Shown: in pieces, positions 46,628 through 50,250 of the stretch | How the letters are laid out: each line of letters starts with the position of its first letter | Position numbering within the stretch: the stretch's first letter is position 1 | Sequence record: NC_054932.1 | Length of the DNA: 64,000 nt | Direction: 5' to 3' (one strand) | From: Escherichia phage teqdroes | The notes under the pieces: model-generated | The model's database searches: none | What the model saw: the letters and a program-made list of their open reading frames with translations, nothing else | Told to the model about the DNA's origin: nothing | Program-made: the position numbers and the translations under genes

Positions 46628-46661
46628 CCCTATCAAAACAAATGTGAAATTGGAGAATAAA

Positions 46662-46895
46662 ATGAAAACGTATCAAGAATTTATTGCTGAAGCTGCTGAT
46701 GTAAAAGTTGAGTTTATTTACATTGGTAAGAAAGATAAAATGGGCGAAATGCCTCATGGAGTTCTTCGTGATGCATTAGATAATTTCGGTCAACTCGGTG
46801 GTGAAGAGTTTGGTGATTATTTTGTTATCTATGGACCAGAAAAAGTCATCGAGAAATGGGCTGATAAATATAAATCAATTTTTCGTAAAAAATAA
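46662..46895 (+). CDS. internal-protein-like small protein with capsid-targeting-type N-terminus (MKTYQEFIAEA)
   Basis: ATG 46662 after GGAG; 77 aa; the track ORF begins upstream at a GTG. Confidence 0.6.
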   Translation: MKTYQEFIAEAADVKVEFIYIGKKDKMGEMPHGVLRDALDNFGQLGGEEFGDYFVIYGPEKVIEKWADKYKSIFRKK

Positions 46896-46934: not shown

Positions 46935-46961
46935 AAAACAAATGTGAAATTGGAGAATAAA

Positions 46962-47147
46962 ATGAAACGTTGTGAATTAATTCGAAATGTTGCTATTGCA
47001 ATTTCTGCTTCCGCTTTTAGTTTTTCAATGTTTGTTGGATTTATATGTGGATTATTGACTACAGCAGAAAATGTGTTTTCACTTGTAGTAGCATTTTTAA
47101 TTGGTTTAATTGCTATTGTTATGGATAAAATTTCTAAAGGTGAATAA
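46962..47147 (+). CDS. small hydrophobic (membrane) protein, 61 aa
   Basis: ATG 46962 behind the same RBS cassette; two hydrophobic stretches. Confidence 0.5.
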   Translation: MKRCELIRNVAIAISASAFSFSMFVGFICGLLTTAENVFSLVVAFLIGLIAIVMDKISKGE

Positions 47148-47558
47148 ATGAGTATTAACGAATATTATGTTTATGCCGGGGATTATGCAAATCCTTCTCA
47201 TTTTGAAGGTAATTTAATACCTGATAAAGTTTTTAATACTCCTTTTGAAGCGTGGAGTTGGATTGAAAGTAAAAATGGATTTTCTTACCGTTATGTTGAA
47301 GTAACTGATTGGAGAGGAACTAAATATCCTAAAGACCATTATTACGTAAATCCATCTAAGGTAAATTTTCTTTTATTCGCAGGTGATAATTATTATCCTT
47401 GTGGCGGATATGATGATTTAATTGCGTATGCTGAAACAGAAGATAAACTGCGTGATATCATTAAAGAAAATGAAAATAAACCAGATTATGGTTCCAATCG
47501 TTTCGACTGGTGGCAAATCGTAAATGCCCATACTCATGCTATCGTTGATAGAGGCTGA
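47148..47558 (+). CDS. hypothetical protein
   Basis: 136-aa ORF directly abutting the previous stop. Confidence 0.5.
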   Translation: MSINEYYVYAGDYANPSHFEGNLIPDKVFNTPFEAWSWIESKNGFSYRYVEVTDWRGTKYPKDHYYVNPSKVNFLLFAGDNYYPCGGYDDLIAYAETEDKLRDIIKENENKPDYGSNRFDWWQIVNAHTHAIVDRG

Positions 47559-47560
47559 TA

Positions 47561-47848
47561 ATGATTCTTTATGCTAAAGTATCATCCATTGAAAATGGAT
47601 ATAAATATGATCAAGAAGCAGCTAAAGCCTTGATTGATGATTATGGCATTTTAACATGTTTTGAAGTTGAAAAGGTTTACATTGACCGTTCATCTTCTCA
47701 GGTTAAATTAGTGAAGGAAGACCGTAAATTTAATACAGTAAATTTTGATTTCTTTATTGAAACAGAAAAAGGTCCTCTTGAATATGATATTTTCAAGAAT
47801 CCTTTGGGTCTTGAATGCATCGTAAATATGTATTATCATAAATGGTAA
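47561..47848 (+). CDS. hypothetical protein
   Basis: 95-aa ORF. Confidence 0.5.
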   Translation: MILYAKVSSIENGYKYDQEAAKALIDDYGILTCFEVEKVYIDRSSSQVKLVKEDRKFNTVNFDFFIETEKGPLEYDIFKNPLGLECIVNMYYHKW

Positions 47849-47945
47849 ATATGCTTTAAGAATTATTTGTTATTATTAACTCATACCGCACTGATTAATA
47901 CCCTCTATCATCAAGGGTTCTTGCTAAAGAGCCTTTGTTAATAAT

Positions 47946-48018
47946 TGGGAATTAGCCAAGTTGGTAAGGCACTGGATTTTGATTCCAGGATGCAAAGGTT
48001 CGAGTCCTTTATTCCCAG
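47946..48018 (+). tRNA. tRNA-Gln: tRNA-Gln (anticodon UUG)
   Basis: Cloverleaf folded by hand; acceptor TGGGAAT/ATTCCCA; CCA not encoded. Confidence 0.75.
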
Positions 48019-48019
48019 C

Positions 48020-48111: not shown

Positions 48112-48185
<74 letters not shown>

Positions 48186-48231
48186 ATTTATGACTCGTCG
48201 TGAGACGCTCAGTTCTTTATTAGGGACTGAT

Positions 48232-48840
48232 ATGCATTTTTATCTTTATAAAATAACAAATAAAATTAATAATAAAATTTATATTGGTGTGCATTCTACC
48301 GAAAATTTAGATGATGGATATATGGGTTCTGGTAAATTATTAAAAAGAGCCCAAGACAAGTATGGTATAGAAAATTTCTCTAAAGAAATATTAGAGTATT
48401 TTGATGATAAAGAATCTATGCTTGAAGCCGAGAAAAATATTGTCACAGAAGAGTTTTTAAATAGACCAGATGTGTATAATTTAAAACTTGGCGGAGAAGG
48501 TGGATGGGACCATATAAATAATTATCCTATGACAGATCAGCAACGCGAATTAATTTCATTGGGTGTTAAAAAGGCACATTCTAACGGAAAATTAAAAGGA
48601 TGGTCTTCAAATGGATTAATGAAGAATGGCTTTGCTGGTAAAAATCATTCTCAAGAAGCTAAACGTAAAATAGCAAAAGCAAACGAAGCAAAAGTTTCTG
48701 CGGATGAAAGAAAAAGAAGAATAGAAATTTCTAAATTATATGATTTTTCTAAGCGTGGTGAATTATCTAAATATGCTAAGCATATTGGCGTAAGTCATAC
48801 TCAAGCAAAAAGAATTCTAAATCAAATTAACAATATATAA
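48232..48840 (+). mobile_element. segB: GIY-YIG homing endonuclease (SegB-like) inside the tRNA cluster
   Basis: FYLYKITNKINNKIYIGVH...YMGSG GIY-YIG motif; track ORF opens at 48190 but ATG 48232 has an AGGGA ribosome-binding site. Confidence 0.75.
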
Positions 48841-48846
48841 ATATTT

Positions 48847-48936
48847 GGAGGCGTGGCAGAGTGGTTTAATGCACCGGTCTTGAAAACCGGCAGTCGCTCC
48901 GGCGACTCATAGGTTCAAATCCTATCGCCTCCGCCA
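48847..48936 (+). tRNA. tRNA-Ser: tRNA-Ser (anticodon UGA), long variable arm, CCA encoded
   Basis: Cloverleaf folded by hand. Confidence 0.75.
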
Positions 48937-49019: not shown

Positions 49020-49094
49020 GGCCCTGTAGCTGGAAGGTTCAAGCAAGCGACTCATAATCGCCAGATGGTGGTTCAATTCCACCCAGGGCCACCA
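49020..49094 (+). tRNA. tRNA with CAU anticodon (Ile2/lysidine-type or Met)
   Basis: Cloverleaf folded by hand; identity between Ile(CAU) and Met cannot be decided from sequence alone. Confidence 0.6.
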
Positions 49095-49197: not shown

Positions 49198-49272
49198 GGA
49201 TGTGTAGCTCAATGGTAGAGCGATCGCCTGTTAAGCGATTGGTTATAGGTTCGAATCCTATCACGTCCGCCA
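49198..49272 (+). tRNA. tRNA-Asn: tRNA-Asn (anticodon GUU)
   Basis: Cloverleaf folded by hand; anticodon loop CTGTTAA. Confidence 0.6.
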
Positions 49273-49386
49273 AATTTGTGACAACTGTCACATTAATATC
49301 TACTTGACGCGATTATAGGGGTTGAACTGATCACTCTTCTCTTAATTTCGTGTGAAGACATCTTGATTGTTGGAGTAGGTATTAAT

Positions 49387-49462
49387 GTGGCCGTAGTTCA
49401 GTTGGTAGAACTCGAGATTGTGATTCTCGTAGTCATGGGTTCGACTCCCATCGGTCACCCCA
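49387..49462 (+). tRNA. tRNA-His: tRNA-His (anticodon GUG)
   Basis: Cloverleaf folded by hand; anticodon loop TTGTGAT. Confidence 0.6.
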
Positions 49463-49466
49463 ATTA

Positions 49467-49542
49467 CGGGGCATAGCTCAGAAGGAAGAGCAAGGACCTT
49501 CTAAGTCCTAGGTCGTAGGTTCGATCCCTACTGCCTCGACCA
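49467..49542 (+). tRNA. tRNA-Arg: tRNA-Arg (anticodon UCU)
   Basis: Cloverleaf folded by hand; anticodon loop CTTCTAA. Confidence 0.7.
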
Positions 49543-49914: not shown

Positions 49915-50248
49915 ACCGGGTCGCTACCGGTAAGTCGTCGGACTGATGTTCCCTGAGTAAGGAATTGCGTTAATAATCTTTGCGTTTATTGATGCCCTCT
50001 TACATCACAGCAGAAACGGCGCACCGAATTATCGATTCGAGGAAATATCTTTGCCGTAAGCCGAGTAGCGTTTTTGACGGAACGTTCGGATATGGTCGAG
50101 ATATGGCCTTTTAAAAATATTGAGTAGCGTCAACTGCTTAATAACCGGGTTCGAATCCCGGCGTTTCGTACAAACACTTGCCTTAGCAGGTGGAACCCCG
50201 ACAAGGTTGCCGCAAGGCTTAGCCCCGACCGAAAGGTTGGGGCTTTTT
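49915..50248 (+). ncRNA. candidate stable small RNA region (compare T4 species 1/2 RNAs), ending in a rho-independent terminator
   Basis: About 330 bp with no convincing ORF; tRNA T-arm-like CCGGG-TTCGAAT-CCCGG at 50145..50161; hairpin plus T-run at 50221..50248. Confidence 0.35.
50221..50248 (+). terminator. rho-independent terminator AGCCCCGACC-GAAA-GGTTGGGGCT plus T5
   Basis: Read from sequence. Confidence 0.65.
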
Positions 50249-50250
50249 GG

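Follow-up and report, generated by a model that had tools for sequence, protein, structure and literature searches.

The closest described relatives of the gene treated here are the SegB proteins of phages T4 and T6. T4 SegB has been purified and cuts DNA: it recognises GGTTCRANTCC, a motif of the T-arm, and cleaves immediately 3' of CCAR, at the very ends of tRNA genes, leaving 2-nt 3' overhangs, and its preferred 27-bp site (GGTTCRANTCC...CCAR) was mapped in phage T2L (Brok-Volchanskaya et al. 2008, PMC2330249). T6 SegB has been purified and cuts DNA too, the mutations Y17A/G19A abolish its activity, and tRNAs are enriched within 1 kb of segB homologues (Chihara et al. 2026, PMC13096335). 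Here we describe a gene of this type (called seg in the following) that lies between tRNA-Gly and tRNA-Ser in a 64,000-nucleotide stretch of Escherichia phage teqdroes DNA (NC_054932.1; this whole stretch is called the window). The window is Tequatrovirus DNA and its 1.7-kb tRNA region is 99.2% identical to both Escherichia phage AndreasVesalius and Citrobacter phage CrRp10; identity to RB18 is 98%.

Judged by analogy with T4 SegB, seg very probably encodes a working homing endonuclease of the SegB family that would be made in small amounts and home into tRNA clusters that lack seg; its target may lie at or near the junction of tRNA-Gly and tRNA-Pro. The features that bear on this reading are:

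47849-47880, + strand: candidate T4-type middle promoter of the tRNA/seg operon, with a MotA-box-like ATGCTTTA and a TATTAT-like -10
47946-48019, + strand: tRNA-Gln (ARAGORN)
48112-48185, + strand: tRNA-Gly(UCC) with encoded CCA, left neighbour of seg (ARAGORN, Rfam)
48186-48231, + strand: leader of the cassette (5' untranslated region; fold prediction and stem-loop search)
48232-48516, + strand: GIY-YIG catalytic domain, residues 1-95 (Pfam PF01541, comparison with T4/T6 SegB)
48517-48840, + strand: linker, NUMOD3-like helix and C-terminal three-helix (putative helix-turn-helix) module, residues 96-202, plus TAA stop codon
48836-48843, + strand: TATAAATA, a match to the T4 late-promoter consensus (consensus match only)
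48847-48936, + strand: tRNA-Ser(UGA), right neighbour of seg (ARAGORN, Rfam)
49198-49272, + strand: tRNA-Asn (sequence compared with PMC2330249)

ARAGORN predicts ten + strand tRNA genes between 47946 and 49542, in agreement with Rfam, in the order Gln-Leu-Gly-(661-nt gap)-Ser-Thr-Met(CAU)-Tyr-Asn-(114-nt gap)-His-Arg, with Arg ending at 49542. The 661-nt gap between Gly and Ser contains a single long + strand open reading frame (48190-48840), which from the ATG at 48232 encodes 202 amino acids and whose stop codon ends 6 nt before tRNA-Ser; leader and reading frame together form a cassette of 655 bp (48186-48840). An earlier reading of the window, made from its sequence only, had placed the gene at 48232-48840 between tRNA-Gly (end at 48185) and tRNA-Ser (start at 48847), which is exact to the base, and had put its start within 5-50 nt of the 3' end of tRNA-Gly, which agrees with the 46 nt that separate it from ATG 48232; an alternative ATG at 48190 is 4 nt past this end.

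The catalytic half of the protein is that of SegB. Residues 3-71 match the Pfam GIY-YIG domain PF01541 (27.0 bits, cut-off 22.6) and the protein matches PHROG 314, 'homing endonuclease', with E=1.7e-55. Identity to T4 SegB is 89 of 89 positions over residues 6-94 (98-99% at the DNA level over 48240-48509), and residues 2-96 are identical to T6 SegB except for K43R. All catalytic residues are in place (Y4/Y6, Y17-I18-G19, R39, E67, N83): Y6, Y17, G19, E67 and N83 are among the residues invariant in 28 homologues, R39 is invariant in an alignment of four sequences, and both positions changed in the inactive T6 SegB, Y17 and G19, are retained. The sequence-only reading had described a free-standing GIY-YIG reading frame splitting the tRNA cluster, had pointed to T4 SegB for comparison and had named the loss of the GIY-YIG residues as the mark of a decayed pseudogene. 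The description holds, the gene belongs to the SegB family with the catalytic core of enzymes that cut DNA, and the complete match to T4 SegB shows no decay of the catalytic residues.

An AlphaFold2 model of the 202-residue protein, built on the 28 homologues, has a predicted local distance difference test score (pLDDT) of 89-96 over residues 1-80. The best fold matches of this predicted structure in the PDB are I-TevI's catalytic domain (1MK0, 1LN0; probability 1.00, TM-score 0.63-0.66); the link to I-TevI comes from the fold search only, as phmmer found no match of the seg protein to PDB sequences at E<=1. The ratio of nonsynonymous to synonymous substitution rates (dN/dS) was calculated against the P0002-type orthologue, a 202-residue Seg encoded in Jiaodavirus-like contigs (metagenomic cluster), with values of 0.13 (N-terminal part) and 0.24 (C-terminal part). 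By these measures both halves of the protein are under purifying selection, and the gene is predicted to encode an intact GIY-YIG endonuclease of the SegB family.

The DNA-binding half is different. BLASTP finds no similarity of the C-terminus to T4 or T6 SegB beyond about residue 117, and sliding-window DNA identity divides the cassette into segments with different closest relatives:

48186-48231, leader: T6 ~97%; T4 unrelated; P0002/Mineola type ~88%
48240-48509, catalytic domain: T6 98-99%; T4 98-99%; P0002/Mineola type ~70%
48510 onward, linker and C-terminal half: T6 and T4 at random level; P0002 ~87%, Mineola only over the last ~120 nt

The N-terminal part differs from P0002 by a synonymous divergence (dS) of 1.69, the C-terminal part by one of 0.43, and the two halves therefore differ in history. 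The gene is a mosaic, joining the leader and catalytic domain of T6/T4 SegB to the DNA-binding half of another Seg lineage. Most simply, the leader and catalytic segment were recently exchanged between a Jiaodavirus-type cassette adjacent to tRNA-Gly and a T4/T6-type segB, in either direction. The comparison with T4 SegB that the sequence-only reading had suggested thus gives a negative answer on orthology of the whole gene: the catalytic domain is orthologous to that of T4 SegB, but slot and DNA-binding half differ from those of T4 segB, the latter being non-homologous. One match to the late-promoter consensus (TATAAATA, 48513-48520, + strand) coincides exactly with the mosaic breakpoint, that is, with the domain boundary.

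Within the C-terminal half, the NUMOD3 match is below threshold (18.1 bits, cut-off 20.4; the Mineola homologue reaches 24.0 bits and is above it) and a match to HTH_10 is weak (E=0.059). AlphaFold2 predicts helices at residues 141-201, with pLDDT ~90 for 157-200; the confidently modelled C-terminal three-helix bundle has weak fold matches to helix-turn-helix domains (probability 0.35-0.5). Confidence is low at residues 92-96 and 124-136, fitting a flexible linker as in I-TevI. The sub-family shares a conserved signature in this half, DFSKRG..LSKYAKHIGVSHTQA(K/R)RIL. A related module is found in T2: the reading frame trna.1 (133 residues, 'unknown function', 2429-2830 of the T2 locus L004) lies between tRNA-Ser and tRNA-Met and matches the putative NUMOD3/helix-turn-helix module of the window protein only (33% over residues 84-198); a GIY-YIG part is absent. 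It resembles a Seg gene that has lost its catalytic domain, in the slot that tRNA-Thr has in other phages.

Annotations of this gene in GenBank vary: RB18 has 'segB ... C-terminus divergent', others have 'SegB-like' or 'homing endonuclease'. Two further names were considered and rejected. 'Truncated SegB-like' (RB51) does not fit, as the protein has 202 residues as in P0002 and a complete C-terminal domain, and neither does 'segD' (AR1, HY01), as the best T4 match is SegB (83% over residues 1-117); RB3 segD is ~50% identical over residues 19-94 only.

The boundaries of the cassette are sharp. tRNA-Gly is identical to T4 and T2 through CCA+ATTTA, where homology to T4/T2 ends, and the homology picks up again exactly at the first base of tRNA-Ser. 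In this interval T4 and T2 have tRNA-Pro, and the window has the cassette and the 14 nt ATATATAAATATTT (48833-48846). The gene orders are Gln-Leu-Gly-Pro-Ser-Thr-Ile-(segB)-Arg in T4, Gln-Leu-Gly-Thr-Met-Tyr-(segB)-Arg in T6 and Gln-Leu-Gly-Pro-Ser-(trna.1)-Met-Tyr-Asn-Arg in T2. An empty site is also seen in the jiaodaviruses of Klebsiella: KpV477 and many other phages have Gly-CCA-AATTA-Pro, and the occupied sites (Mineola and the P0002 loci) have a clean insertion of ~650-700 bp in the 5-7-nt spacer between Gly and Pro, the same flanks spanning 1201 nt in Mineola versus 506 in KpV477. At these occupied sites tRNA-Pro is intact and the seg stop codon lies within its 5' end.

Of about 524 related GenBank phages, 53 have a C-terminal half of the window type next to tRNA-Ser, the junction being identical in all of them, and ~470 other records have tRNA-Ser and no seg; a separate search returned 54 records with at least 95% protein identity to the seg protein. 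Free-standing homing endonuclease genes are typically recognised by such a clean polymorphism, and seg is present or absent among close relatives, with clean boundaries and otherwise collinear DNA.

The sequence-only reading had further suggested that seg may explain the remodelled tRNA content nearby. This stands for tRNA-Pro, as its absence coincides with the cassette, but not for Tyr, Asn and His, which the cassette does not account for. tRNA-Tyr and tRNA-Asn are also present in T2, a phage without T4-type segB, and tRNA-His belongs to a separate indel, absent in RB51 and T2, where Arg directly follows Asn; in the window, a 114-nt non-tRNA spacer and tRNA-His (49273-49466) are inserted between tRNA-Asn and tRNA-Arg. 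We also considered the leader (48186-48231) as the decayed 5' half of tRNA-Pro, as suggested by GCTCAGTT shared in a three-way alignment, and rejected this: the leader belongs to the cassette, because it is also found ahead of the gene in T6, there following tRNA-Tyr, and in Mineola and the P0002 loci, which have an intact tRNA-Pro.

Expression of seg is likely coupled to that of the tRNAs. The MotA-box-like ATGCTTTA at 47852, with TATTAT downstream, is the sole TGCTT within 47500-48000 and matches the position of the T4 middle promoter, which from upstream of the tRNA cluster drives the whole tRNA/segB transcript (PMC2330249). A sigma-70 promoter scan around seg did no better than shuffles (11 versus 9.5). 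Co-transcription of seg with the tRNAs is thus likely, and a link between seg expression and tRNA processing via one operon is plausible. The stop codon lies 6 nt upstream of the 5' end of tRNA-Ser, unlike in Mineola, and processing by RNase P would therefore not remove it. Downstream of the cluster there is a strong terminator-like hairpin (50221-50250, stem 50221-50244: 10 bp, 7 of them GC, with a T-run), at the site where the T4 transcript of tRNAs and species I RNA ends; a species I-like RNA in the region is not matched by Rfam.

The leader is predicted to fold into two hairpins: a small CGUC-GUGA-GACG hairpin (48196-48207) and a 9-bp hairpin (48209-48230) that holds the AGGGA ribosome-binding site in its 3' arm. 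T6 and Mineola differ from the window at three stem positions, with pairing kept throughout (A-U to G-U, U-G to U-A). Control by such hairpins has been described for T4 segB and I-TevI (PMC2330249, PMC2988022). Many leaders of distant SegB-clade genes, 60-67 nt upstream of the seg start, have a hairpin of 15-20 bp whose 5' arm contains TATAAATA and whose 3' arm contains the ribosome-binding site (IMG/VR loci L018, L019, L023, L024, L027-L029, L034-L038, L040, L041), and each of these directly follows a tRNA gene of varying isotype; the I-TevI-type switch of late promoter and hairpin is apparently conserved across the SegB clade. Close to seg, the TATAAATA at 48836-48843 overlaps the stop codon, 3 nt before tRNA-Ser, within the ATATATAAATATTT that replaces tRNA-Pro; the whole window has 26 matches to this consensus, with 9.6 expected.

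The AGGGA site (48222-48226) ends 5 nt upstream of ATG 48232, and this ATG is the better candidate for the seg start: in alignments it coincides with the starts of T4 SegB, the Seg of Klebsiella phage Mineola and the P0002-type proteins, and the numbering of the T6 SegB mutants Y17A/G19A fits a methionine at the equivalent position (PMC13096335). Annotation is divided, with the start at 48190 in RB18 and at the equivalent of 48232 in RB51. A true product of 216 residues starting at ATG 48190, 4 nt past tRNA-Gly, would be in keeping with the reading frame, which is open from there, and with the annotation of RB18 and others and protein cluster P0001. We consider it very unlikely and rejected this start: there is no Shine-Dalgarno sequence before 48190 and the 14 additional codons overlap both leader hairpins. 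Nor is the N-terminal extension conserved, as the in-frame stretch upstream of the Mineola gene starts with TGA and the GTG upstream there is out of frame.

The position of the cassette is typical of its family. We fetched 80 loci of homologues from IMG/VR, of which 35 contain tRNAs. At 24 of the 80 a tRNA of any isotype, on the same strand, ends 39-67 nt before the start codon, and the next tRNA often begins -15 to +8 nt from the seg stop; the 46 nt and 6 nt of the window fit this pattern. This base-level spacing refines the tRNA enrichment reported near segB homologues. Cassettes that start a few bases after a tRNA CCA would, by analogy, be the expected product of repairing SegB-type breaks, and the tRNA-adjacent spacing, which fits the cutting of T4 SegB just 3' of CCAR, is one of the observations in favour of homing.

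Homing could proceed as follows. The middle promoter upstream of tRNA-Gln would drive a common transcript of seg and the tRNAs, and the hairpin at 48209-48230, a predicted structure whose function is assigned by analogy with T4 segB and I-TevI, would throttle translation from AUG 48232. In a mixed infection, the scarce enzyme would break both strands in the tRNA cluster of seg-less relatives with the T2/T4-type order Gly-Pro-Ser, the likeliest places being the CCAA end of tRNA-Gly or its vicinity, the Gly-Pro spacer and tRNA-Pro. Recombinational repair would copy the cassette and replace tRNA-Pro, as the presence/absence polymorphism suggests, and the phage's own genome would be immune, its site being split or deleted.

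Several points weigh against this proposal. The mapped T4/T6 site (GGTTCRANTCC...CCAR) is not simply transferable to the window protein, because the DNA-binding half differs. All 53 Tequatrovirus copies share one junction, which is compatible with a single old insertion that spread vertically or by ordinary recombination instead of continuing to home. Mineola keeps tRNA-Pro beside the gene and tRNA-Pro can thus not be the sole determinant of self-cleavage. The z-score of the leader fold is modest (-1.86), the hairpin is supported by three lineages with one-sided changes only, and the leaders of the window, T6 and Mineola lack a late-promoter motif, though the hairpin is present.

Some of these observations would also suit an element that has become stranded: a reading frame still open, no longer mobile or expressed as its target was lost or its translation blocked, and hitch-hiking in the tRNA operon. 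The leader without late promoter, the buried ribosome-binding site and the identical junction of all Tequatrovirus copies agree with this, T4 SegB activity is undetectable in extracts of infected cells (PMC2330249), and decay occurs nearby, with T2 trna.1 being a Seg reduced to the C-terminal module. However, comparison with a diverged orthologue gives a dN/dS of 0.13-0.24 for the two domains, and the copies examined (53-54 carriers) have 96-100% coverage and at least 98% identity with no frameshift seen, although stop codons were not read in every record. Potential targets exist, as the ~470 seg-less records have tRNA-Ser and seg-less tRNA-Pro alleles are abundant, and T4 SegB homes with ~99% efficiency despite the same kind of hairpin (PMC2330249). 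A stranded, silent element is therefore less likely than a working enzyme, and we regard it as improbable.

A second alternative starts from the T6 protein: both the amplification of a tRNA-Tyr+segB unit of 718 bp and the escape of T6 from the defence systems Septu, OLD and ToxIN depend on its nuclease activity (PMC13096335). Seg could be a domesticated SegB that makes breaks in its own tRNA cluster and thereby seeds tandem tRNA/anti-defence amplification against tRNA-cleaving defences, with homing being secondary. In favour of this, seg has nearly the same leader and catalytic domain as T6 segB, the set of flanking tRNAs in the window is complete, with T-arms of the GGTTCRANTCC type, and purifying selection acts on both halves. 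Yet the T4-type C-terminal domain of T6 SegB is replaced here, and we found one copy of seg in the window and no second copy or tandem amplification. We consider such a main role possible but doubtful; it may coexist with homing, as the two do not exclude each other.

A further reading is tentative. Two SegB-family lineages, one at Gly|Pro and one at Asn|Arg, may compete in the 1.6-kb tRNA operon of T-even phages, with the leader and catalytic segment recently swapped between them through gene conversion, the DNA-binding modules distinct and each phage type carrying the target of the other; the window variant would target Gly-Pro or tRNA-Pro and erase tRNA-Pro on homing. Of the 10 window tRNAs, 8 have the motif GGTTCRANTCC...CCAR, which does not imply recognition by the seg variant. 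The 27 bp at the 3' end of tRNA-Asn (GGTTCGAATCCTATCACGTCCGCCAAA) are identical to the site in T2L that T4 SegB cleaves by preference, and with this site intact the window phage is therefore a predicted recipient for T4-type segB in mixed infection. T4 in turn carries the empty Gly-Pro-Ser allele, so that the window phage keeps the T4 SegB site and T4 keeps Gly-Pro. If the two lineages do compete, mutual attack by endonucleases would shape which tRNAs T-even phages carry, perhaps together with seg-driven amplification under tRNA-targeting host defences.

Other observations concern the neighbouring genes. ARAGORN calls the tRNA at 49020-49094 Met(CAU), a label that is likely to mislead; the annotations of RB18, RB51 and T4 give tRNA-Ile, whose CAU anticodon probably carries a modification of the lysidine type. 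In tRNA-Gln (47946-48019) all five pairs of the anticodon stem differ from T4, T2 and T6 (CTGGA...TCCAG in the window, TAGCA...TGCTA in the three others), every change is compensatory and the UUG anticodon is unchanged. The T4 allele is found in ~152 phage records. We considered the window allele as a footprint of co-conversion with seg and rejected this, as ~308 records have the allele and 53 have seg, and the two are thus unlinked. Further upstream, two neighbouring + strand reading frames share their eight N-terminal residues, V/M-KLENKMK, encoded at 46644-46670 and 46944-46970; these starts, ~300 bp apart and upstream of tRNA.4/tRNA.3-like genes, point to a repeated leader or start region.

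The gene itself is known and annotated in more than 50 GenBank genomes, its family is well characterised and the general understanding of homing endonucleases is unchanged by our results. A literature search found no published account of the specificity of the window variant, and its predicted DNA-binding half makes it a new specificity member of the SegB family. Together with T4/T6 SegB it forms a natural domain-swap pair, with one catalytic domain and leader, two unrelated DNA-binding modules and two slots in one tRNA operon. This pair could serve to separate the half of SegB that reads the T-arm motif from the half that sets the CCAR cleavage point, and to test whether homing drives the composition of T-even tRNA clusters, for example the loss of tRNA-Pro. 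The variant is also a candidate for asking whether SegB-driven anti-defence tRNA amplification extends past T6.

Among the known systems, T4 SegB (Brok-Volchanskaya et al. 2008, PMC2330249) shares with seg the identical catalytic residues 6-94, the free-standing gene in the same tRNA operon, directly 3' of one tRNA and abutting the next, a leader hairpin, predicted in the case of seg, that occludes the ribosome-binding site, and the presence/absence polymorphism among T-even phages. It differs in several respects: the C-terminal 105 residues of the window protein (linker and DNA-binding module) are non-homologous, the proteins have 221 and 202 residues, respectively, and the leader sequences differ; T4 segB lies at Ile|Arg in place of Tyr-Asn, whereas seg lies at Gly|Ser in place of tRNA-Pro, and the preferred T4 SegB target, tRNA-Asn, is intact in the window phage. 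T6 SegB (Chihara et al. 2026, PMC13096335) has a leader ~97% identical and the same first 96 residues except for K43R, but a T4-type C-terminus and a slot between tRNA-Tyr and tRNA-Arg.

I-TevI of the T4 td intron is intron-borne, in contrast to the free-standing seg, and its catalytic domain is ~25% identical to that of the window protein, in which a zinc finger was not found and the NUMOD3 match is under the Pfam threshold. The predicted architecture is alike, with an N-terminal GIY-YIG domain, a flexible linker and, for seg putatively, a C-terminal region of minor-groove helix and helix-turn-helix type, and so is the control of translation proposed for seg, by a hairpin over the ribosome-binding site. 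The Seg of Jiaodavirus (Mineola CPT_Mineola_142 and P0002) has a catalytic domain with ~70% DNA identity to the window (dS 1.7), and tRNA-Pro is kept, with the seg stop codon inside it; the Mineola protein also has an extra insert of 18 residues containing NUMOD3. It is like seg in its slot directly after tRNA-Gly(UCC), in its leader (~88%) and in its putative C-terminal helix-turn-helix module (~87-93% DNA identity), and P0002 likewise has 202 residues. The Jiaodavirus Gly-Pro Seg is the apparent source lineage of the cassette.

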